From the NCBI GenBank assembly GCA_963763325.1, contig CAVXOL010000020.1, positions 53,731 through 117,730 of the forward strand: a stretch of DNA of 64,000 nt. The letters are read 5' to 3'. The notes below the pieces were generated by a model. The model made no database searches, was not told the origin of the DNA, and saw only the letters and a program-made list of their open reading frames with translations. Within the stretch, counting starts at the first letter, position 1, and each line of letters begins with the position of its first letter. Both the position numbers and the translations under genes were made by a program. Below, piece by piece: positions 467-16,135 of this stretch. The DNA comes from an uncultured Chloroflexia bacterium (GTDB taxonomy: Bacteria > Chloroflexota > Chloroflexia > Thermomicrobiales > CFX8).

Positions 467-497
467 GGAACGCCCCCGGGGATACGGGGAGCGTTCC
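467..497 (-). terminator. Hairpin downstream of small repeat protein 1
   Basis: GGAACGC-CCCCG...CGGGG-A-GCGTTCC inverted repeat between convergent genes; homologous hairpin at 3579-3607. Confidence 0.6.
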
Positions 498-528
498 ACA
501 ACGGGTGTGAGGATTGGAGTGTGCGAGG

Positions 529-927
529 TTAGTAGGGTAAGCCGCGCCGATCGCTGAATGGAGCAACCAGTGGCGCATCGTCGCCCGGCAACGCGTTGAT
601 CTCCAGCAAGCGCCAGCGCTCGAACGTCACGACTGGAGCCGGGGCGGCTTCAGGGAGCGCATTCATCTCGCGGAAGCGGTACTGCTGATAGCTCATCGGA
701 CGAACGGCAGCGGCTTCCGGCAGCATGTTCATCTCGATGAAGTGGAAGTTGGCGTTGGTATTTGGCTCTGCCGACGCAGAGACATCGGCGTTGGTTGTTG
801 CGTCACCGCTCTGGGTGATGGCCGCAACGGCAGCCCCGGTTCCCAGGACCCCCAACAGAAGAACGATGATCACGGCGATCCGAATCTGATTGCGCTGAGT
901 CCGCTTGACGGTTGCTGTTGCCTGCAT
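529..927 (-). CDS. Small exported or membrane-anchored protein with three F-x-E-[MI]-N-x-LP repeats (copy 1)
   Basis: 132 aa; AGGAGG RBS; basic N-terminus and hydrophobic segment; repeats FHFIEMNMLPE, YRFREMNALPE, WRLLEINALPG; paralog at 3650-4041. Confidence 0.85.
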   Translation of the reverse strand: MQATATVKRTQRNQIRIAVIIVLLLGVLGTGAAVAAITQSGDATTNADVSASAEPNTNANFHFIEMNMLPEAAAVRPMSYQQYRFREMNALPEAAPAPVVTFERWRLLEINALPGDDAPLVAPFSDRRGLPY

Positions 928-1000
928 TGTGTGCCTCCTGTTTGTCTGCTATCCCCGGATGTCATTCGACAATCACAGCATGCGTTCAGGGGCGAGGAGG

Positions 1001-1055
1001 CACATCCCGCGACCTGATCAATCGCGGCACGCATGGTAGTAGTCAGGGCTGACTA
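1001..1055. promoter_or_regulatory. Putative LuxR-HTH operator: TAGTCAG-GG-CTGACTA (1040-1055) plus CACATC..CCTGATCA block
   Basis: Perfect 7-2-7 palindrome; the same blocks recur in the same order at 4118-4176. Confidence 0.6.
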
Positions 1056-1070
1056 TTTCGTTCGCAGCGG

Positions 1071-3382
1071 TCAGGCCAGCCCGTGCCGGACGGCATAGGC
1101 TGCGGCAGCCGTCCGCGACTCCAGCCCGAGCTTATTCAGGATGCTGGCGACATGGTTGGCCACCGTGTGCTGGCTGATGAACAACTCGGCCGCGATCGAT
1201 GGGTTCGAGTTCCCATCAACGATCAACCGCAACACGTCCAGCTCGCGTTCGCTCAACACTGACCGTACGGTTGCTGCCGGTTCGTCCAACTCAGCGACAC
1301 CACTGATTGCCAACTCAATCGCATCCTCCAGCGACATGCGCTGTCCGGCTAGCCATTCGGCATCGAACGCCTGCTCATCAAGCTCCGCGCGGACAGTCCG
1401 GATAGAAAGGTCATGTAGCGGCACCGAGGTTGAAATGATCGGAGTTCGAATACGCCTTCGAAGCTGATCCGCCGCGCCGAGGAGTTGAGCGGCGCGGCGT
1501 GGCTGGTGCAGTCCAGCCGCGACGCCAGCCAACCCCTCGATGAGGTGGGATATCGGCAGGATCTCGTCAGCCTGTTGATACCAGCGCAGGCTCACGGAGA
1601 ACATCTCCTGTGCCTGGGTCAGATTCCCCTGTCGCAACGCAATATCCCCCAACTCGCCCTGCCATGTCACAACGGCATCAAGATCGCCGTTGCGGAGGTC
1701 GCGTTCCAGACCCTGGTTGGTCAGGTTGGCCGCCAACTCCAGATCGCCCTGCGCGATGGCGACACCGACCATATTGGCGATCGTGTAGCTCATCACCCAT
1801 GGATAGACGATCGACCGCTGGATATGCAGACTCTCCTCGTACAGTCGCATCGCCAACGGATAGTCGCCGGAGAAATGCGCCGCCCGGCCCAGACCGTGTA
1901 ACGCACCCAGGCTCCCGACCTGGTCACCCGCCTGTTGAAACAGATCGAATGCCTCCTGCGCGCACGCTCGCCCGTGCTCGTAGTCACCCAGGAACACGGC
2001 CAGCGTCCCAAGATGGCTGAGGGCCCAGGCACGCTCCAATGACGGCGTTGAGCACGCCGCCAGTGCTCGCTCAAGCCAGCGTCGTCCTTCAGTCCAGTGG
2101 TCGGCGATATGCCAGTAGAAACCGAGCTTCGCCACGATCCTGATCGCCGCGGCTGAATCGTGCTCCAGCGCCCAGTCGAGCGCGACACGCAGGTTGTCGT
2201 GCTCAGCCTTCACGTCCGCAATCCACAGATGCACCACTGCTGGCGACATGTCCTCCCAGGCGAGCCGGTCGAGCCGTTGCAGGTACCAGGCAACGAACCG
2301 GCGCATGACATGCTGGCGATCGGCATCGGCGAGCCGCTCCTGCCCGTACTCGCGGACCGTGCTGAGGATCGTGAACCGCGCGTGATCGGCGCCATCCGTG
2401 TGCTCCATCCGGCGCACGAGGCTGTGGTCGAGCAGCGCGTTCAAGCTGTCAAGGACCGGGGCGCCAGTCTCGCAGATCGCCTCGATTGCCTCGATCGTCC
2501 AGCCTCCCGCGAAGACAGACAACTGATAGAACAGCGTCCGATCTTCCTGACTGAGCAGGTTGTCACTCCAGGTGATCGTGTTACGCAACGTCTGCTGGCG
2601 GGTTGGCGCGTCGCGTGGTCCGCCGGTCAGTAGCGACAATGGGTGCTCCAGGCGGGCTAGCAGTTCGACGGGCGGAAACGCCTTGCAGCGTGCGGCCGCC
2701 AGTTCGATCGCCAGTGGGAGCCCGTCCAACCGGTGACAGATGGCAGCGATCGCGGCCGTGTTCGCTGGTGTTACAACGAAGCTCGGTTGAATGGCGCGCA
2801 CCCGCTCGATAAACAGCATTGCGGCAGGCGAGGCGGTCAGGTCATCGGGAGAAAGCTGATCTGCCGATGCCGGCAAGCCAAGCGGCGTGACCGGATACTC
2901 GCGCTCGCCATAGACGTGCAGCGCAATCCGGCTGGTGGCCAGAATCGCGAGATTCGGACACCGTGCCAGCAACTCACCGAGCGACGGCGCTGCCTCCACG
3001 ACGTGCTCGACGTTGTCGATGACGAGCAGCAGCCGCCGCGAACCGAGCGCCACTGCAAGCCGGTCAAGCGGCGTCGTGTCCGGTGCTTCAGCAATCCCCA
3101 GGGCTGCGGATACTGTTGGGATGACGAGCGTATGGTCGCTGAGTGGGGCAAGCAGCACGAGCGACGACACCGTCCAGGAATGCCTCTCGCAGGCGACTCG
3201 GCAGCAGCGATCGCCAGCCGCGTCTTGCCGACACCGCCCGGCCCGGTCAGCGTGAGCAGCCGGTCATCGGCTGGCTCCAGAAGGTCGCAGAGGTCGGTGA
3301 TCTCACGCTCGCGGCCGATCAACGGGGTCAGCGGAGATGGCAATTGATTGGTTCGCTCAGACGACGATGTGACGAGCATCAT
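1071..3382 (-). CDS. STAND (NB-ARC-like) ATPase-TPR-LuxR HTH transcriptional regulator, copy 1 (indel near 3170)
   Basis: [12 protein letters not shown], Walker [35 protein letters not shown]-like helices, C-terminal [29 protein letters not shown]. Confidence 0.92.
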
Positions 3383-3578
3383 TCGGCTCGCTTCCCCACC
3401 CGGTTGCTGACCGCGCACCCGTGATATTCCATCTTCGCGAGCGCAATGCAATGTGTCAAGTCATTCAGTTTGTCGGATACGGAATTGCGTAACAGTTGCC
3501 TGTGCGAACCACCATGTCGGGTCCAGCCGGCTAGCTGGTGGTTGCGGCATCAGCGCAACATCGGACAGCGTACACGAC

Positions 3579-3607
3579 GGAACGTCCCCGAATCACGAGG
3601 ACGTTCC
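3579..3607 (-). terminator. Hairpin downstream of small repeat protein 2
   Basis: GGAACGTCC...GGACGTTCC 9-bp stem, homologous to 467-497. Confidence 0.6.
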
Positions 3608-3649
3608 TGAAAGGTGTGAGGATTGGATGGTGCGTCGATCAGTTGCGCC

Positions 3650-4041
3650 CTAGCCGAGGGTCGCCGAATGGAGGAATCGAATGTCGATTCGCCGCCAGGC
3701 AGCTCGTTGATCTCGTTGAAGTGCATGGTCTCGATATGTCTGAACTGTAGACGGCACCAGATCCGCCATCCGGTTCATCTTGATAAACTGCTGTCGATCG
3801 ACGGCTCGCATCCGCGCTGGTGATGCATCTGGGAGCTCATTCATCTCTGCGAAGCGGAAGCGTATCGTTCGTCTTCGGCTCGACAACCGAAGAAATCGGC
3901 GCGACTACCGATGGCGATTCGTCGCGAGTCAACGAGACGGCAACGCCGGCCAGGGAGTACGCCCAACAGAACGGCGGAGATCGCCGTCACGATCCAGACT
4001 GGGTGAACGTGGAAGCGGCGTGTCGTTGATGTTACCTGCAC
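3650..4041 (-). CDS. Small exported repeat protein, copy 2 (about three indels; split in ORF track)
   Basis: Joined frames give [78 protein letters not shown], collinear with copy 1. Confidence 0.75.
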
Positions 4042-4117
4042 GTGGCTTGCTTGTTCCAGTATCGTACGATCCTCACACTGCTTGGACAGTTAGAGGATGT
4101 GCTCAGAGGCAGGGCAT

Positions 4118-4176
4118 CACATCGGCGGCAAGCCTGATCATTCGTGGGGCGGCCGGCGGTAGTCAGTGTCGACTTA
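4118..4176. promoter_or_regulatory. Second copy of the putative operator (TAGTCAG-TG-TCGACTT at 4160-4175; CACATC..CCTGATCA)
   Basis: Same position relative to the regulator stop and same motif order as 1001-1055. Confidence 0.5.
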
Positions 4177-4189
4177 TCGCGGTAAACCG

Positions 4190-6575
4190 TCAGACTCAGC
4201 CCGTACCGAACGGCATACGCGGCAGCCGCCGTCCGCGATTCCAGCCCGAGCTTGTTCAGAATGCTGGCGACGTGGTTGGCGACGGTGTGCTGGCTGATGA
4301 AGAGCGTCGCGGCAATCTCCTGATTCGTCAGGCCGTCAACGACGAGACGAAGCACCTCTAGCTCTACGCGCTGAGAGACCAGCCTGATGTGTGGCGAGCA
4401 ACGACCTGGTGGCTGTAGGACGGACGCTGGATAACCTCCAGCGCATAATCGAGAGATTGGTCGAGCGACATTGCGCGACCCGCTCAGCCCATGCGGCGTC
4501 CCAGGTCTGCGGGACCAATGCTGCGACTTCAGCGATCGGAACGTAGACGCTGGTAATCCTTGCGCTCCAACGGCGGGACTGGTACACCAAAGGCGCTCCC
4601 GTAAGTCGGTCGGCAGCGCCAAGGAGGGCTAGCAACACGGTCTGGCTGGTCATCGGTGCGCTGAGAATCCAGGCAGCATGTCTTCGAGCGTCTGGGCGGC
4701 GATCGTGGATCCGCGATAGGGCGTCTGAAGGACGGTCGATGCTCTCCTGGAGCAGAGCCGCGGGCGATCGGTACATCTCCCTGCGTACATGGCTCCAATC
4801 GCTGCGTCGATCGGCAGCGAGCAATGCGATGCCGCTCACATCTCCGGCATCGCGCGCCAGCGCGAGCGCCTCGTCAAGGAATGCGGCGGCGCGCTCAAAG
4901 TCACCAAGTGTCAATGCCAACCGAATCCGAGGTTGCCGAGCCCGGTCACCAACGGAGACATCGATATTGCGAGATCACGCGCGCAATCCTGGTAGCTCTG
5001 TTGATAGAGCCGATCCGCCTGAACGAGATCGCCCTCGAACATCGCGATCCGCGCCAGACCGATACAATGCTTCCGCGCAGTGCCACGCTGATCATTCAAT
5101 CGGCTGCGTACATCGACAGGCTTTCCTCGGTCAAGGATCCTGACGCTGCAGCATAATCGCCTTGAGTTATCGCGAGGAAGCCTGCAAAGCCACAGCGCGT
5201 CCGCCCGCGTCAGTTCCGGAAACCGTGGATATCATTCAGGGCAAGCTCGAACCAGCGGCGCCCTTCGCTGAAGTATCCACGAGCCATCCAGTAAGGGCTG
5301 GTCGCGCGGTTCAGCCTGAGGGCCAGATCAGGCTCGCGCTCCGCGGACCAGCGAAGCGCCGCCCGTAGATTGTCGAGTTCGACATCACCGCGCCGTAGCC
5401 ACGATCAACTGGCTCGACGGACCATTCGAGTCACGCGCTACCCGCTCCATCCAGTCGAGGAAGTAGCTGGCGTGCCGGCGATGCGTCTCATCACGCTCAT
5501 CCGGCGTCATACACTCCAGGCCAAACTCACGGATCGTCTCGAGCATGCCGAAGCGCGGTCGCGTCTTCAGGCTCGTCGGTCGCTGGCGTTCGTGACTCAA
5601 TCAGGTTGGCCTCTACGCAGCGCGGATCAATCCATCCAGTGATGTCGATCGTCTCGCCATCCCAGCCGGTACAGACAGACTCGGCAGCGGCGAGAGTGAA
5701 GCCACCCGACGAACACGGCCAGGCGTCGGAACAACTGCCTGCTCAGGCGGATCGAGCAGGTCGTAGCTCCAGGCGATCGTGTCACGAAGCGTCTGTTGGC
5801 GGGTCGGCGCGTCACGCGGTCCGCCGGTCAGCATCGACAACGGATGCTCAAGTCGAGCCAGCAACGCGGCGGGCGGGAACGCCTTGCAGCGCGCGGCAGC
5901 CAACTCGATTGCCAGCGGGAGGCCGTCCAGCCGGCGGCAGATGTCTGCGATCGCGACCGCATTCGCTGCGGTCACGACGAAGTCCGGCTGGCTGGCGCGC
6001 ACCCGCTCGACAAAGAGAGTGCGGCAGGCGATCGGTCAGGTCGATCGGGGGACAACGGCGACATCGATCACCGGGACGCCAAGCGGCGAGACTGGGAAAC
6101 TCGCGCTCGCCATAGACATGCAGCGGAATCCGGCTGGTGGCGAGAACCGACGAGATTCGGACAACGCGCCAGCAACTCACCGAATGCCGGGGCTGCCTCC
6201 ACCACGTGCTCGACGTTGTCGATGACGAGCAGCAAGCGCTGAGCACCGATGGCCGCCGTCAGCCGGTCGATTGGTGTCGTGTCCGGCGCTTCCGCGATTC
6301 CCAGCGCCGTGCGTGATCGTTGGGACGACGAGCGTATGGTCTCCAAGTGGAGCAAGCAGCACGAGAACAACACCGTCGGGGAACTGACCTCGAGCGCGTT
6401 CAGCAGCAGCGATCGCCAGCCGCGTCTTACCAACGCCACCCGGCCCGGTCAGCGTCAGTAGCCGCACCTCCGGCGATTCGAGCATCGACCGGACAGCCTC
6501 CATCTCCGGCTCACGCCCGATCAGCCGCGTCAGCGGCCTGGGGGGTGCGGCGAAGCCGTGCGATGGAATAGACAC
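4190..6575 (-). CDS. STAND ATPase-TPR-LuxR HTH regulator, copy 2 (many indels)
   Basis: Fragments: [97 protein letters not shown] (identical to copy 1 in the HTH). Confidence 0.85.
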
Positions 6576-6712: not shown

Positions 6713-7516
6713 ATGACGATACAGGACCCGAGCCGTGACCAGGCGCAGGCACAGGCCGAGCTGGAAACGACCGAGCAACGACCGGAAATCACCCCACCAA
6801 CAATCGAGAAGCGCGCGCTGGTCGTCGTCGCCCACCCGGACGACGCCGAGTTCTCCTGCGGCGCGACCGCCGCCAAGTGGGCGCGAGACGGCTGGGAGGT
6901 GTCGTTCCTGATCGTGACCGACGCGACCGGCGGTGGCGACGACCACGCGACCGACGTTGGCCCGGCAGCACGGAAAGTGATCGCCGACACGCGCAAGGCC
7001 GAGCAGCGGGCCGCCGCCGAGGCGCTTGGCGTTTGCAACGTCGAGTTCCTCGACTACCCAGATGGCCGGATCGAACCGACGCTGGAACTGCGCCGCGACA
7101 TCGTCCGCGTCATGCGCCAGTTGCGGCCGTGGATCGTCGTCTGCCCCAGCCCGGAGCGCCGCTGGGACCCGTTCTTCATCGGCCGCCACCACCCGGACCA
7201 CCTGGCCGTCGGCGTCGCGACCTCAGCCGCCGTCTACCCCGCCGTCCGCAACGCCTGGGACTTCCCGGAACTGCTTGACGAGGGGCTGCGCGAGTGGCGC
7301 GTCCACGAACTCTGGATCGTCGGCGCGCCGATCTCCAACCACTTCGTTGACGTCAGCGACACCGTCGACGCCAAGATCGAAGCCCTTCGCGCGCACCAGT
7401 CGCAACTCGGCCAGCACATGGAGGAAGTCGAGCGCTCTGTCCGCCGTGGCCTTGCGATGATCGGCGCCCGCCACGGCGTCGCCTCCGCCGAGGAGTTTCA
7501 CCGCGTCGTTATGTAG
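6713..7516 (+). CDS. PIG-L/LmbE family deacetylase
   Basis: AHPDDAE and HHPDH metal-binding motifs; KIEALRAHQSQ. Confidence 0.93.
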   Translation: MTIQDPSRDQAQAQAELETTEQRPEITPPTIEKRALVVVAHPDDAEFSCGATAAKWARDGWEVSFLIVTDATGGGDDHATDVGPAARKVIADTRKAEQRAAAEALGVCNVEFLDYPDGRIEPTLELRRDIVRVMRQLRPWIVVCPSPERRWDPFFIGRHHPDHLAVGVATSAAVYPAVRNAWDFPELLDEGLREWRVHELWIVGAPISNHFVDVSDTVDAKIEALRAHQSQLGQHMEEVERSVRRGLAMIGARHGVASAEEFHRVVM

Positions 7517-7548
7517 GGAACACGAGTCGGGAGAGCAAGGGCCAAAAG

Positions 7549-7585
7549 CCCCCTCTCCGCGTCGGAGAGGGGGTTGGGGGTGAGG
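7549..7585. repeat. REP-like palindromic element
   Basis: CCCCCTCTCC-GCGTC-GGAGAGGGGG-TTGGGGGTGAGG; 10-bp stem with G-rich tail. Confidence 0.7.
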
Positions 7586-7588
7586 TCC

Positions 7589-8311
7589 GTGAACGCCGAT
7601 CTGGACAAAGTCACATCTGCACGGAGCATCCTGATCGTCGGTGCGCACCCGGACGATCCGGACGCGTTCGCGGCCGGGACCGTCGCGCGCTGGACGGCAA
7701 CTGGCGCGCAGGTGCGCTACCTGGTCGTGACGTCGGGTGACAAGGGCGTCCCGAATGACGAGATCAACGATCCGACCCGTTTCATCACGATGCGCGAGGA
7801 GGAGCAGCGCCGCTCGGCAGCCCTGCTCGGCGCCGAGGAAGTCGTCTTCCTGCGCCACCGCGATGGCGAGGTGATGGATACGCTGGAGCTGCGCGGCCAG
7901 ATCGTGCGCGAGATTCGGCGCGCGAAGGCCGACCTGATCGTCACCCACGACCCGCTGACGAGAATGTTTCGCCAGCACCCCGACCACCGCGCCGTCGGTT
8001 TCGCGACGTTGGCGGCGGCCTTCCCCTCCTGCCGGCTCGCCAGCTTCTACCCCGAGCAGATGTCCGATGGTCTGGAGCCCCACAGTGTACACATGCTGCT
8101 GCTCGGTGGCGGCGACCCGACCGATTGGAACCTGTACGTCGACATCAGCGAGACGTTCGAGCGCAAGATCGACGCGCTCAGCCTCCACGAGAGTCAGGCA
8201 TCAGCCTTCGTCGGAGGACTCCGTTCCCGCATGACCCAGCGTGCCAAAGATATGGGTGCCCCGGCCGGACTTGAGATGGCCGAAGCCTTCACGTTCGTCT
8301 GGCTCGACTGA
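7589..8311 (+). CDS. PIG-L/LmbE family deacetylase (second paralog)
   Basis: GAHPDDPD, VTSGDKG, QHPDHRA, KIDALSLHESQ. Confidence 0.92.
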   Translation: MNADLDKVTSARSILIVGAHPDDPDAFAAGTVARWTATGAQVRYLVVTSGDKGVPNDEINDPTRFITMREEEQRRSAALLGAEEVVFLRHRDGEVMDTLELRGQIVREIRRAKADLIVTHDPLTRMFRQHPDHRAVGFATLAAAFPSCRLASFYPEQMSDGLEPHSVHMLLLGGGDPTDWNLYVDISETFERKIDALSLHESQASAFVGGLRSRMTQRAKDMGAPAGLEMAEAFTFVWLD

Positions 8312-9284: not shown

Positions 9285-10059
9285 CTAGATCGACACCTGC
9301 ATGAAGCGGTCGATCATGGCGTTGACCTGGTCGGGCACTTCCAGTTGGTTGAAGTGGCCTGCGCCAACGGTCTGGCCGATCATCACGTGCGGACATGCCT
9401 CGCGGAGCCGGTCCAGGTCGGCCAGCGGCACAGCGGCGTTGATCAGCAGGGCTGGAGCCTTGCAGCCGGTCGCCGAGCCGGCTGTGTCGCAGGTGAAGAT
9501 CGACTCCATCGCCGAGTGCATGACGTACTGGGGTGCGCTCGCCATATGCTCGACGATCTGTTCCTTACGCTTGGGGTCATCGGTCGGCAGGAACAGCATG
9601 TTGCTGACGAAGCCGCGAGAGACGTTCTGATAGTCCGGACTTCTGAGCCCCTCAACGAACGCGGGAATTTGAGACGCCAGCGCCTCGGGTGGAACGAGCG
9701 GTGCGTCGATCGCGACGACGGCCCCGACGAGGTCCGGGTGGCGTGCAGCCATCTCGAAGGCGACGACACCGCCCATGCTGTGGCCAACGACGACCGGGCG
9801 AGTCGACGCCCAGTTGCTCACAGAGAAAGGCCAGGTCGTCAGCGAAGCCAGCCATCGAGTATTCCTGCTCCGGCTTGTCGCTGTCGCCGTGGCCGCGCAG
9901 ATCGACCGAAATTACTCGGTGCTGCTTGCTGAAATGTTCGGCCTGCGGGGTGAAGTAGGTGTGATCGCACGTCCAGCCATGGACCAGCAGCATGGGCGGG
10001 CTGCCGGATCCCTGCTCCTCATACGCGAGGCGCACGCCATCTCGACTGAGGGCCTGCAT
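9285..10059 (-). CDS. Alpha/beta hydrolase (indel near 9800)
   Basis: LLVHGW, DLRGHGDS, GHSMGG nucleophile elbow, GAGHF. Confidence 0.92.
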
Positions 10060-10843: not shown

Positions 10844-12149
10844 TCACGCGCCGCCGAGCCGGACGTACTTCATACGCTTCTTCCCCGCTCGGAGCAGCAC
10901 GATCTCGTCGGACGGCTCGAACGAGGCGTCGGCGTCGGTGACGCGGGCGTCGTCGAGCGAGAGGCCACCCTGCTGGGCGAGGCGGCGGGCCTCGTTGCGG
11001 CTGGTCGCGAGGCCGGCCTGGACGAAGAGTTCGGCGATCGTAACCGGGCCATCCAGCGTCAGGTCGATCGTCGCGTCGCTGGCGAGGATCGTAGCGTCCG
11101 GCGCGGCGCCTCGATCGCGCGAGAACAGGGCGCGGGATGCGGCAGCGGCCTCGTCGGCAGCTTCGGGCCGTGCGTCAGTGCCGTCACCTCCCAGGCGAGG
11201 ACGGCCTTCGCCTCACGCAGTGCTGCGCCTTCGACCGAGGTGAGGTCGGCGATGCGGTCTTCCGGAAGGAACGTGTAGAGTCGCAGGAAGCGGGACACGT
11301 CGTCGTCGGTCGTGTTGACCCACCACTGGTAGAAGTCGAGCGGGGTCGTCCGCTCGCGGTCGAGCCAGACTGCGCCGGCCTCGCTCTTGCCCATCTTGCG
11401 ACCGTCGCTGGTCGAGATCAGTGGCGTGACGAGGCCATACGCCTTGCCGCCCTCAACCCGGCGGATCAGGTCGGTCCCGGCCATGATGTTGCCCCACTGG
11501 TCGGATCCTCCCGCCTGCATGATGCAGCCGTACTCTGGAACAGGTGCAGGAAATCGTAGGCCTGCAATACCCGGTAGTTGAACTCGATGAACGACAGACC
11601 CGTCGTCTCCAGCCGGACCTTGTAGGTCTCGGCCGCCAGCATCTCGTTGACCGAGAAATGCCGGCCGATGTCGCGCAGGAACGGGACCAGTTGCAGCTCC
11701 AGCAGCCAGTCGGCGTTGTTGATCAGCAGCGCGGCCTGGTTGTCGCCGAACTTGCCACCGTCGAAGTCAAGGTAGCGCGCGAATTGCGGCAGGATCGAGC
11801 GCAGATTCTCGTTGATCGTCTCGACCGTTAGCAGCTGGCGCATCTCGGTCTTGCCGGACGGATCGCCGATCATGACCGTCCCGCCGCCGCCGATCGCGAT
11901 TGGCCGGTGGCCAAGCCGCTGGAGGTTGGCCATCAGCATGATGCCGACCAGGTTGCCGATGTGGAGGCTGGTCGCCGTCGGGTCAAAGCCGATGTAGAAC
12001 GTCACCGGGCCGCTGGCGAACGCGTCGCGCAATCCCTGCTCGTCGGTGACATCATGGACGAAGCCGCGCGAGCGCAGATAGTCGAGCGCGTTCATCCCGG
12101 CCCTCAATGCCTGCTCCGGCCCGGTGATCGTCGCGGTCATCTCGCTCAT
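10844..12149 (-). CDS. tyrS: Tyrosyl-tRNA synthetase (several indels)
   Basis: YIGFDPTATSLHIGN (HIGH), GGSDQWGNI, KMGKS, S4-like tail ending RAGKKRMKYVRLGGA*. Confidence 0.97.
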
Positions 12150-12417
12150 GGTCTCTTCCTTACCCACGCGGACGCGATTCAACTCTCGAATTGTAGCGGT
12201 CAGTCCTCGTCAGATGATACTCCGTCGATGATTACTGCCGCCTGTGGAGATGATCGATGAGCTGATTCGTCCGATTGCGCGCTTCAGGCATACATCTGGC
12301 GCAGTGATCGGCACCATGGAACGAAGATCGGCCCTGTCCGTGAGTTCGTACCGCGACTCACAAACAACACCGATCTTCGTTTCGCACTCCTTCAGCTGCG
12401 AGACAGCCCGATCGACG

Positions 12418-13482: not shown

Positions 13483-16135
13483 ATGACGGGTGGTCCGCCG
13501 ACAACGTTCGCCGACGCGCTCCGCCGGGCGCGACAGCGCCGCGGGCTCACGCAGGAGGAATTGGCCGAGCGCGCTGGCCTCAGTGTGCGCGGCATCAGCG
13601 ATCTGGAGCGCGGGGTCAACACGACGCCGCGTCGCGACACGGTCGCGCTGTTGCTGCAGGCGCTGGCGCTGGACGACGCCGAGCGCGCCGCCTTCGAGGC
13701 CGCCGCACGTCCCCGCCGCGCGTCGCCGGCCAGTGTGGCCATGAGCACGCCGCTGACCTCGCTGATCGGCCGCCAAACCGACCTCGCCGCACTGGCGGCG
13801 CTGCTTCAACGTCCGACCCTTCGGCAGAAAATACGATCCTGAACCGAGTCGAAGGATCAGAGCAGGCTCCTTCGGCAGGACCAGTGCTGGCTGTGCGGCT
13901 CGTGACGTTGACCGGACCCGGTGGGGTCGGCAAGACGCGTCTTGCGCTGCAGTTGGCGGAGGATCTCGTACGGCAGCCGACGCGACGGCGTCCGATTCGT
14001 CAGCCTGGCGAGTGTGACCGAAGCCGAGCATGTGGCGGCGGCGATCGCCAGTGCGCTGGGACTGACGCTCGCAGGGGATGCGACGCCGCGCGACCGGCTT
14101 CTGGAGCGCTGGCCGAGCGCGAGCTGCTGCTCATCCTCGACAACTTCGAGCACGTGCTGCCGGCTGCGCCGCTGTTGAGCGACCTGCTGACGGGCTGTCC
14201 GCAGTTGCAACTGCTCGTCACCAGCCGAGCACTGCTGCGCCTCTCGGGCGAGCATGTCGTCGATGTGGCACCGCTACCGACGCCCGATTCCGCGCACATC
14301 CCACCGCCTGAGCAACTCGGCCGCTATCCAGCGGTGCGACTGTTCGTCGAGCGGGCGCGGGCGCTGCAGCCGGCCTTCGAACTCACGGCGAGCAATGCGG
14401 AATCGGTCGGACGCATCTGCGCGCAGCTGGACGGCTTGCCTCTGGCGCTCGAGCTGGCGGCGGCGCGCATCCGGCTGCTGCCACCGGAGACAATGGCCGC
14501 GCGGTTGGAGCGCAGCCTGGCCGTACTGACCGTCAGGAGCCGCGTGACTTGCCGGCCCGCCAGCAGACGTTGCGCGACACGATCGCCTGGAGCTGTAACC
14601 TGCTGACCTCCGTCGAGCAGGCGGTGCTAAGGCGGCTCGGAGTCTTCGTCGGCGGCTGGACCCTGGAGGCAGCCGAGGAGGTCTGCGCCGGGCCGGACCT
14701 GCCGGGCGACGCGGTGCTACCGGCGCTGGCGACACTGCTCGACCACAGCCTGATCCGCGCGACCGCTGATGAGGGAGCGCCACGCTACAGCATGCTGGAG
14801 ACAGTCCGGGAGTACGTTCTGGATGATCTGGCACGGCACGGCAACGAGCACACCACGCGCCAACGTCATCGCGACTACTGCTTCGACCTCACGCTCCGGC
14901 TCGAGCGCGGGCTGTACAGTGGCGAACGGCTGTATTGGCACCGCCGGCTGGTCGCCGACCTGGACAACCTGCGCTCCGCACTGCGCTGGACGCTCGACCA
15001 GGGCGATGGCGAGCGGGCGTTGCGTTTCGCCGGCAGCCTCTGCTGGTCGTTCATGCACCTGGAAGCACACCAGGAAACTCGGCGCTGGGCGACCCTCGCG
15101 TTGGCACTGGCGGACGAAAGGACCGATCCGGCGGCGTTGGCGCTCGGTCACTTTACCCTTGGCTTCGCCCTCGGGCGCTTGGGCAACCTCGACGCCGCGC
15201 GCCGCACCCTCATCGACAGCCATGCACTGTTTGAGAAGGCCGGCGACCGGCGAGGAGCCGCGCTCGCACGCCAGTTCGTGGCCGTGTTCGCGCTGGGTCA
15301 GGGCAGCTACGACGCGGGACGCGCGGAGCTCCTGCAGTCGAACGCGGTGCTGCGGGAGGTCGGCGACGACTACTTCCTGGCCAACGGGCTGTTCCTGCTG
15401 GGAGAGGTCACCGCACCGAGCGATCCCGGATCGGCGCGCCTGCTCTACGAGGAGAGCCTGGCCATCTTCCGCGCGAGCGGCGACCCGTGGGGGATCGCCT
15501 GGCCGCTGGCCGGGCTCGGCGGTTTGGCGCTACGTGAAGGTGATTATCCGCGCGCCCACGCACTGTTCGAGGAGGCACTCGCGCTGCGACGATCGATAGA
15601 GGCGCGCTGGGGAGTCGCAATCGCGCTGACCAGCCTGGCCGAAGTCGAACGCCGCACCGGCGACTACGCGCGCGCCGCGGAGCGCCTGTTCGAAGCGCTG
15701 GAACTCTTCCGCGAATCAGGGGACTTGGAACGCGTCGCCTGGGTGCGACAGTGCCTTGGGTTCCTGGCGATCGACCAGGACGACGAAAGCGCCGCAGCGC
15801 ACCTGCGCGAGGCGTTCATCCTCCGCCGCAGGCAGGGCCACTTGCCGGGCCTGGCATTCGTCCTGGACGGCATGGCAACCCTCGCGGCGCGCGCCGGCGC
15901 GCCCGACGCCACTTGCGACGCTCGTGAGCTGTTCGCGATCGCCGACCGACTCCGAAGCGCCGCAGGCATGAGGGCAGCCAACGAGGAACCGACGGTTCGT
16001 GCCGCGCGCCGTGCCGTCGGGGTACCAGTGCAGGATCCCAACCAGCCCGACGTCGCCGTAGACCAGATCCTGATCGCTGCCGAGCACCTGCTCCTGGCGA
16101 CACTGGCACGGACATCTGACCAGCCTGCACGCTGA
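13483..16135 (+). CDS. XRE HTH-STAND ATPase-TPR regulator (indels)
   Basis: [56 protein letters not shown] array. Confidence 0.9.
13818..13892. repeat. Degenerate CCTTCG..GTCGAAGG REP-like element inserted in the coding sequence
   Basis: CCTTCGGC (13818), GTCGAAGGA (13848), TCCTTCGGC (13868); about 25 extra codons before RLVTLTGPGG that are absent from the two paralogous ATPases. Confidence 0.55.

Follow-up and report, generated by a model that had tools for sequence, protein, structure and literature searches.

STAND regulators such as MalT and AfsR are autoinhibited until an inducer on the TPR sensor lifts the inhibition, whereupon the ATP-bound regulator activates transcription. Operators of the NarL/GerE type are 7-2-7 sites, inverted heptamers 2 bp apart that lie upstream of the promoter. 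The closest known system to the module described here is Streptomyces AfsR-AfsS. In the accessible parts of the sources, AfsS has 2–5 short repeats, low overall conservation and a conserved promoter (PMC10832544; bioRxiv 10.64898/2026.09.02.748808), and the ligand of the AfsR sensor is still open (PMC10936776). A model of autoinhibition by the TPR sensor is given for MalT/LAL regulators (PMC6468293, available in part), and a size criterion of 10–100 aa is used for RRNPP propeptides (PMC10075063). The initial annotation knew of no described system with the present architecture, and no description of the module was found in a literature search that covered few subscription papers and no supplements, where lists of AfsS-like genes may bear on novelty.

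The window (the whole 64,000 nt stretch of DNA analysed, from an uncultured Chloroflexia bacterium) carries two regulator-plus-small-gene units on its minus strand, spaced ~3.2 kb apart. Both hold a STAND-TPR-LuxR gene, an intergenic palindrome with a promoter-like element, a small gene, a 3′ motif and a hairpin. Regulator 1 (1071–3382, minus strand) combines a STAND ATPase of the NB-ARC type, a TPR sensor and a C-terminal LuxR (GerE) HTH. Behind it lie a predicted operator (1040–1055, unstranded), which is the perfect 7-2-7 palindrome TAGTCAG-cc-CTGACTA, and, all on the minus strand, a TGATCA-containing predicted second regulator site adjoining the −35 element (1010–1025), a predicted promoter (977–1006; GATGTG, 18 nt, CATGCT as −35/−10-like elements) and small gene 1 (529–927; 132 aa, intact frame). 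These are followed on the same strand by a 3′ motif (504–525) common to both copies and L079/L080, and by a GC-rich hairpin (467–497, z −2.2) that is terminator- or stability-like and has no U-run. Copy 2 consists of regulator 2 (4189–6575, minus strand), which has the same architecture, an imperfect operator (4160–4176, unstranded) with one intact arm and shifted spacing, and, on the minus strand, a predicted promoter (4094–4123; GATGTG, 18 nt, CATCCT), small gene 2 (3639–4041), which encodes a family member (52% to P0035) with three repeats, the 3′ motif (3613–3634) and a hairpin (3579–3607, z −1.6). The 22-nt motif is 91% identical between the copies and is absent as a conserved feature in the wider small-protein family; a terminator scan of the module found no T-run terminator at the hairpins, and Rfam gave no real match on the module loci.

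The locus had been described as two complete units. Both units are present, but copy 2 is broken by ~24 frame breaks (~20 in regulator 2 and four in small gene 2, at about 3951, 3854–3863, 3730 and 3675), and regulator 1 by two (~3193 and ~3159; open frame 1071–3170). This amounts to ~8 breaks per kb in copy 2 versus a background of 0.43 per kb, obtained from 12 breaks over 27.7 kb in 32 other gene stretches of the same assembly. Small gene 2 starts with GTG and has no clear ribosome site, and the operator, spacing and start region of copy 2 depart from those of copy 1. An extra base at 3862 is absent from one contig (depth 3), and no contig spans copy 2; the breaks reflect either sequencing or assembly error or gene decay. 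At the DNA level the NB regions of the copies are 76–82% identical and the TPR regions 40–55%, so the pair is not a simple recent duplication. At the 5′ end, L079 resembles copy 2 (80%); from where the NB region ends, it resembles copy 1 (69–89%). Compared with this intact relative, regulator 2 reaches 75% in the NB region and 34% in the TPR region. The tandem likely arose when an entire module was gained or lost by recombination within the conserved NB region. The module is genuine, and the tandem arrangement is not what sets it apart.

The regulators are about 770–1000 aa long and match Pfam GerE, TPR_12 and TPR_MalT; Walker A, Walker B and GLPLA motifs are found in both on read-through, split by assembly breaks. 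No SARP match was obtained, the regulators having a C-terminal GerE domain instead. The AfsR model aligns with the NB region of the L079 regulator at E 1e-13, a match far below the cut-off, and orthology with MalT was ruled out (47.7 bits against a curated cut-off of 537). The earlier observations on the two copies stand: the LuxR HTHs share an identical 33-residue core (81% across the whole domain), and the TPR regions have diverged to 31% identity. The TPR model is similar to grooves in which TPRs bind peptides, that of RapF with peptide among them, a likeness that is generic.

The copy-1 palindrome is centred 41 nt before GATGTG and is the sole exact copy in the genome. Among modules, the recognition helix SQHTVANHV pairs with the half-site TAGTCA, S(H/P)HTVMRHV with T(A/C)GGTGA and SYRTVTTHV with TACGTAG. 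Since the operator tracks the DNA-recognition helix, these sequence pairings suggest that the regulator likely switches on its own small gene. The proposal that one operator had been kept holds for the two window copies, with copy 2 imperfect, but not genome-wide, where operators differ between modules. A good palindrome stands exactly at −41 in 8/21 promoters and is shifted in the others. For three operators, a genome-wide search allowing at most one mismatch, with weaker sites outside its reach, found no exact copy outside their own modules, which leaves the small gene as the only visible output.

The promoter was not flagged by a standard sigma-70 scan of the module, and the −10 element varies among relatives (TAAAGT, TAGAGT, TATGCT, TACTCT). 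Genome-wide, 14 of 160 matches to the promoter pattern have a LuxR HTH no more than 200 nt away, versus 0.2 expected, and 10 of these 14 precede MQ-type small genes with a hydrophobic segment. In G004, a genome chosen by promoter alone, each of the eight matches is followed by a small protein whose N-terminus is hydrophobic; the repeats of these proteins are of several kinds, and seven of the matches lie directly behind a LuxR tail. A loose version of the pattern gave mostly background except in G002. Separately, in family f4 the same kind of promoter and regulator drives unrelated cargo, with the small repeat protein in 0/7 loci.

Small protein 1 consists of a basic N-region, a hydrophobic segment (~residues 17–37) and three RFxEMNxLP-type repeats. 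The export or transmembrane segment named in the initial annotation is found in both copies as an N-terminal hydrophobic segment; the divergence it had reported for the peptide is not, the repeat core being alike, of the (F/W)RFxEMNxLP type, in both. The family comprises 255 clusters with a median length of 152.5 aa and occurs in 20/192 genomes of the host's order and in 0/400 other genomes of the phylum, with 10 modules in the source genome. Relatives carry about eight repeat classes, with 1–6 repeats per protein spaced 22–24 residues apart and near-identical within one protein. A hydrophobic segment is present in 140/150 family proteins, and its N-flank is the more positive in 136/140. Signal-peptidase AxA sites are not enriched (36 observed versus 50 expected in a rough test on 140 proteins), so release of the repeats is putative; some members have classical-looking cleavable signal peptides. 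The structure model (pLDDT 61) has no globular fold and shows a single long helix plus three short ones set apart. The small proteins match no Pfam or NCBIfam family, precursor families included, and a protein atlas search returned unnamed clusters alone (0.79), at most a lead. An amphipathic-helix idea was dropped, the moment for 223 repeats being 0.26, below the 0.33 of shuffled sequences. A two-repeat DNA pattern gave nine matches in genome_contigs, four family members and five by chance, and a single chance match in viral_contigs, so the scan gave no sign of phage carriage. The small protein founds a family without annotation that is apparently undescribed and fast-diversifying.

Linkage of the small gene to STAND regulators, as previously supposed, is supported by the family search of genomes for 21/28 homologs: 18 sit behind a LuxR-type regulator, three more face an XRE-STAND gene and seven have no adjacent regulator. 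The count covers 28 of 31 small-gene matches, excluding L074 (an unrelated protein), L075 (no intact gene) and L078 (cut at the contig start); L178 and L179, from unpublished genomes, were also excluded and no claim is built on them. The RFLExN repeat adjoins NB-ARC, AAA_16 and divergent XRE-STAND genes, and its occurrence with three STAND architectures might just as well point to a functional link with STAND sensors. The repeats are hypervariable, and module turnover is frequent at one chromosomal site. Among 111 neighbouring ORFs, no conserved protease, transporter or receptor gene and no recurring modifying enzyme was found. A family-5 oligopeptide-binding gene adjoins the module in G000 and L079; as the genome holds 60 matched stretches of this family, it is not counted as support.

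The initial annotation had inferred cognate receptor/propeptide pairs, but co-divergence of TPR and peptide is not apparent (Mantel rho 0.10, p 0.10; 21 modules), and small-protein similarity follows that of the HTH weakly (rho 0.18, p 0.06). Repeat class tracks the HTH (p 0.0004) more than the TPR (p 0.02) across 18 modules; as the HTH is the closer of the two to the small gene on the DNA, linkage alone favours this. The TPRs of same-class modules are slightly closer (30.6 versus 27.4%, p 0.02, with the ortholog L129 dropped; 33.6 versus 27.6%, p 0.008, with it kept). The TPR tree was built from 26 NB-ARC-type rows, with AAA_16-type and very short rows excluded. C14 and C18a share 96% of the HTH, 45% of the small protein and 31% of the TPR; the DNA of C18a is mosaic, its sensor portion being 67% similar to that of a regulator that has no small gene, and this natural TPR swap retained the peptide class. 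Likewise, C5 and L061 are 86% identical in the HTH and 24% in the TPR, one repeat core adjoins TPRs that are only 18–37% identical, and C20c is without the small gene that its G002 ortholog (TPR 71–76%) carries. HTH, operator and small gene move as one cassette between different sensors. This sharing across unrelated sensors, together with the repeat beside divergent TPRs, argues against cognate pairs.

A mechanism is proposed, with about an even chance of being right, where sensors of many kinds each turn on a repeat peptide that is exported, acts outside the cell and is not the private trigger of the neighbouring sensor. The LuxR domain likely binds the palindrome immediately downstream of its own regulator gene, and the regulator would then activate the small-gene promoter. 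With its predicted N-in/C-out topology, the small protein would be membrane-anchored or exported, with the repeats outside. These would be set free, probably by proteolysis, and could serve as an outgoing peptide signal or ligand, whose receptor may be something other than a strictly cognate TPR.

A tentative alternative is that the pairs are cognate after all: repeats would leave the cell, be clipped, return through an oligopeptide transporter and be bound by the TPR of the neighbouring regulator. This would close a positive feedback loop comparable to RRNPP sensing or to an AfsR-AfsS system with export. The layout of a receptor followed by a small exported gene fits this, as do the STAND neighbours of 21/28 homologs, the eight or so classes of internally near-identical repeats, the generic likeness to the RapF groove, the many family-5 binding proteins, including the one beside the module, and the weak TPR-class signal (p 0.02). 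As far as the available text of the sources goes, duplicated pheromones are known in Rap-Phr (PMC11343458) and AfsS repeats bind their neighbouring STAND (PMC10832544). The same repeat core nevertheless stands next to divergent TPRs and two unrelated STAND lineages, the TPR swap left the peptide in place, C20c lacks the small gene of its ortholog, the small gene is the sole visible output and seven homologs have no regulator alongside. Also tentative is peptide communication through NLR-like STAND receptors, independent of RRNPP, in which exported tandem peptides of at least eight code classes would be released and re-imported to induce STAND-TPR-LuxR regulators, for which no peptide inducer is known so far, with ~10 channels per genome swapping sensors, operators and peptides by recombination and cross-talking through orphan receptors.

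Unlikely, though compatible with a ~22-residue uncharged stretch behind a 16-residue N-region and with the lack of AxA enrichment, both of which fit a signal anchor, is a small protein that stays tethered at the surface, whose repeats bind an outside partner, be it a protein on a cell surface, a neighbouring cell or a phage, and which gives no diffusible signal. Repeat number and spacing, and the hypervariable repeats and module turnover at one site, would suit such a role, but the outside part is just ~90 residues and unstructured, some members have classical-looking cleavable signal peptides, and the repeats are not amphipathic, which makes simple membrane coating unlikely. That the protein is a multi-core precursor of a modified natural-product peptide, with enzymes encoded elsewhere, is very improbable: modules do share a common leader with variable repeated cores, but that leader is a transmembrane-type segment, no precursor family was matched in Pfam or NCBIfam, and the RiPP idea was rejected because no recurring modifying enzyme lies among the 111 neighbouring ORFs. 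Least credible of all is an artefact, meaning a mis-assembled duplication or a spurious small ORF. Copy 2 is rich in frame breaks, but the divergence between the copies far exceeds error, an independent contig is identical over 755–941, another is 95% identical over 3786–3945, and 255 homologous clusters exist. For the module itself this reading is refuted; only the intactness of copy 2 is at issue.

STAND-TPR-LuxR regulators are abundant in the source genome, with 73 nucleotide-binding loci, and inducers or outputs are known for hardly any of them. The family offers a compact unit of one regulator, one 16-bp site, one promoter and one short repeated peptide, and nature supplies numerous variants of it, chimeras among them. 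Should the peptides prove to be inducers, they would form a new peptide-signalling class outside Bacillota; should they be outputs, they would be exported peptides under regulation, of a class not seen before. The series of matched helices and operators provides a natural code for DNA recognition by LuxR-type domains.

Compared with known systems, the module has the 7-2-7 palindrome upstream of a promoter that is typical of NarL/GerE-type operators, but its half-sites vary in step with the recognition helix. It shares with MalT/LAL regulators the P-loop STAND ATPase (Walker A, B), TPR sensor and C-terminal LuxR HTH, whereas their targets are sugar or biosynthetic genes and the target here is a small repeat-protein gene. 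With RRNPP(A) systems (Rap-Phr, NprR-NprX, PlcR-PapR, AimR-AimP, AloR-AloP) it has in common a cytoplasmic TPR regulator, an adjacent small gene that follows it and whose product has a hydrophobic segment behind a basic N-region, and many pairs per genome (PMC7425212, in its accessible part); duplicated peptides also occur there (PMC11343458, likewise). An RRNPP propeptide is expected to be secreted by Sec with a cleavable signal and its mature peptide to bind the cognate TPR; here a hydrophobic segment is common in the family (140/150), and AxA sites are not enriched. RRNPP receptors, however, are expected to be 250–500 aa without a STAND ATPase, against ~770–1000 aa with NB-ARC/AAA and a C-terminal HTH here; the small protein (132 aa; family median 152.5) exceeds the propeptide range of 10–100 aa, TPR-peptide co-divergence is weak and the phylum is different. 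As far as the available portions of the AfsR-AfsS reports extend, both systems couple a TPR-bearing NB-ARC STAND to a small gene that encodes a repeat protein, lies directly downstream and has in its promoter the regulator's site, assigned here by covariation. They differ in that AfsR has an N-terminal SARP domain and direct repeats in place of the C-terminal LuxR HTH and palindrome, and in that AfsS is cytoplasmic and acts with AfsR on promoters, whereas the small protein here has a hydrophobic segment with repeats predicted outside and belongs to about ten paralogous modules per genome.

Comparison of the sequences revealed two related units on the minus strand of the window, the first of which comprises a regulator gene (1071–3382, minus strand), a palindrome (1040–1055), a promoter-like element (977–1006, minus strand) and a small gene (529–927, minus strand) that is followed by a 3′ motif and a hairpin. 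In unit 2 (regulator 2, 4189–6575; small gene 2, 3639–4041; both minus strand) all of these elements are present in imperfect form. The initial annotation described two complete units, but in this assembly copy 2 is broken: relative to intact relatives, there are two frame breaks in regulator 1, about 20 in regulator 2 and four in small gene 2. Other STAND genes carry 0–13 breaks each, and a background of 12 breaks in 27.7 kb (32 other stretches of the assembly), two of them in tyrosyl-tRNA synthetase, indicates indel errors in the assembly. Such errors are shown by an apparent α/β-hydrolase-like gene (our reading; window 9285–10059) and by that tyrosyl-tRNA synthetase gene (11059–12182), both of which are split by frame breaks. 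The breaks in copy 2 are single-base and mostly insertions, the only two in-frame stops fall in one poorly aligned spot, and an extra base at 3862 is absent from one independent low-depth contig; we therefore lean towards sequencing error, in a stretch of poor coverage, as the somewhat likelier cause, although the operator, −10 and start region of copy 2 also deviate, which counts on the side of decay.

Pfam assigns GerE and TPR domains to the regulator; an NB-ARC/AAA domain is added in its intact relatives, and Walker and GLPLA motifs appear in both copies on read-through of the frame breaks. This is an ordinary LAL/MalT-type architecture. The C-terminal 409 residues were modelled as a TPR solenoid plus HTH (pLDDT 93), and the predicted solenoid resembles peptide-binding TPR grooves, a match that is generic. 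As first noted, the HTH core is identical between the copies (33 residues; 81% for the whole HTH) while the TPRs have diverged (31%).

Two tandem PIG-L deacetylase genes (6713–8311) lie divergent from regulator 2, and this pair also flanks other modules, in L053 and L071. Immediately to the left of the window lies a third STAND-TPR-LuxR gene that lacks a small gene (L098; contig C20:47336–52024 of the source genome, G000). It diverges from a lone family-5 solute-binding gene; in L079, a relative's locus with a single module, that binding gene faces the peptide module. A further, frame-broken STAND nucleotide-binding gene lies at about 14091–14687 of the window. Both families are strongly expanded in G000, with 73 STAND nucleotide-binding loci and, for the family-5 binding proteins, 60 matched stretches. 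The 5′ end of the L079 module resembles copy 2 (80% vs 46%), and everything past the NB region resembles copy 1. Next to the PIG-L pair and the TGT/FmrO genes, different modules are found in the relatives G002, G004 and G017. As the origin of the tandem we infer a variable array exchanged through recombination in the NB region, and not a recent duplication.

A profile search placed the small proteins in 255 clusters at 50% identity, and no family in Pfam or NCBIfam matched them. An N-terminal hydrophobic segment is present in 140 of the 150 proteins that were examined (N-flank more positive in 136 of these), and RF(L/I/M)ExNx(x)LP repeats occur 1–6 times per protein, spaced mostly by 22–24 residues. 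A model predicts a long helix plus three short ones, separate from each other, with no globular fold; AxA cleavage motifs are not enriched, and the repeats tested as not amphipathic. The repeat classes observed are RFLExN, TSDExxAxE, RFYAxKE, YDxPGxGEG, DYLLLDEV, CVELAGLC, LIDENSWG, WGLGVGLD and HRPADRG, some of which look distantly related. Within the order, 20 of 192 genomes gave matches, and within the family 11 of 19, counts among which two weak matches were false on inspection; a sample of 400 further genomes from the phylum, each with just 10 candidates scored, gave none. The names of the sources indicate Chloroflexota, order Thermomicrobiales, which is also the inferred placement of the window. 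YDxPGxGEG repeats also occur in two orphan small genes (G000 C5:30803 and C20:119068; the window spans C20:53731–117730) that have no STAND gene within 4 kb. We found no description of the module or small-protein family in the literature, and the small-protein/regulator modules are a real, apparently undescribed family.

Linkage to regulators, which the initial annotation proposed to check with a small-protein profile, was borne out: among 28 homologs chosen by the small protein alone, 18 have a LuxR tail ≤420 nt upstream, three diverge from an XRE-HTH STAND gene, and seven have neither, five of which keep the promoter. The divergent layout occurs at G000 C23:663597 and C5:6396, and at L065, L076 and L077. 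When the promoter was the sole criterion, 14 of the 160 hits in the genome lay no more than 200 nt from a LuxR HTH (0.2 expected), ten of them with MQ-type small genes downstream. All eight strict promoter hits in G004 precede small hydrophobic-start proteins; the single hit in G007 does not. In family f4, this promoter and regulator type stand before other cargo at all 7 of 7 loci, thus indicating a general switch that has the peptide as one of its target classes.

GATGTG-18 nt-CATGCT is present in 21 of 26 intergenic regions, and variants of the second hexamer such as TAAAGT, TAGAGT and TATGCT identify it as a −10 element. Upstream lies a 7-2-7 palindrome, exactly at −41 in 8/21 (background 1.6%) and shifted in some others; its arms vary symmetrically, in step with the recognition helix. 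Kin share both helix and operator traits, but modules C5 and L061 have them in common despite unrelated sensors. A scan up to one mismatch found no exact copies of three tested operators away from their own modules.

Behind another LuxR regulator class, a 60-nt conserved hairpin carrying an internal GGACG/CACCCG loop follows at 109–144 nt (7/14 pattern hits) and precedes genes whose products often begin with a signal peptide. Compensatory change is seen in 11 of 23 predicted pairs (seven sequences), and Rfam has no match; the hairpin is a candidate new 5′ UTR RNA element. The loci (L181–L188, all in G000) are C1:488660–488725, C1:306727–306791, C5:38828–38892, C11:182794–182858, C18:28958–29022, C19:78791–78855, C21:124062–124140 and C10:4325–4410.

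In the mechanism proposed as the most likely, at about even chances, every STAND sensor would respond to an input of its own and be switched on with ATP, as are MalT and AfsR (PMC6468293; PMC10936776). The activated regulator would bind its own palindrome, the predicted operator, and one predicted exported tandem-peptide protein would be expressed per regulator, to act outside the cell. A more doubtful alternative is cognate feedback, in which the repeat peptide acts back on the neighbouring regulator; AfsS repeats bind AfsR (Kd 4.7 μM) and are needed for binding (PMC10832544), and a link to the sensor could be what ties the small gene to three STAND architectures. Against feedback, the co-divergence expected of cognate receptor/propeptide pairs, as first proposed, is weak at best: over 21 modules, Mantel tests of the small protein gave rho 0.10 (p 0.10) against the TPR and 0.18 (p 0.06) against the HTH. 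Same- and other-class pairs of 18 NB-ARC modules differed in TPR identity (30.6 vs 27.4%, p 0.02; 33.6 vs 27.6% with ortholog L129 included) and HTH identity (71 vs 64%, p 0.0004), comparisons affected by the closer position of the small gene to the HTH than to the TPR and by noise from reading through broken genes. Most of the TPR tree is poorly resolved, with 5 of 23 branches well supported.

Direct cases are clearer than these statistics. Modules C14 and C18a have HTH, operator and repeat class in common, but the C18a sensor DNA is 67% like that of C11b, a regulator that has no small gene; the RFLExN repeat adjoins both 790-aa NB-ARC and 1000-aa AAA_16 regulators; and regulator C20c lacks a small gene, whereas its G002 ortholog has one.

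Among known systems, the regulator shares the ordinary architecture of LAL/MalT proteins, and the module departs from two of the five RRNPP criteria (PMC10075063). Its closest likeness, in layout, is AfsR–AfsS, of which it is not a member, having no SARP and a hydrophobic segment in the small protein. Small non-hydrophobic proteins also occur behind STAND-LuxR genes (L170, L173, L174 and G000 C1:449330), and these are nearer to an AfsS-type cytoplasmic target.
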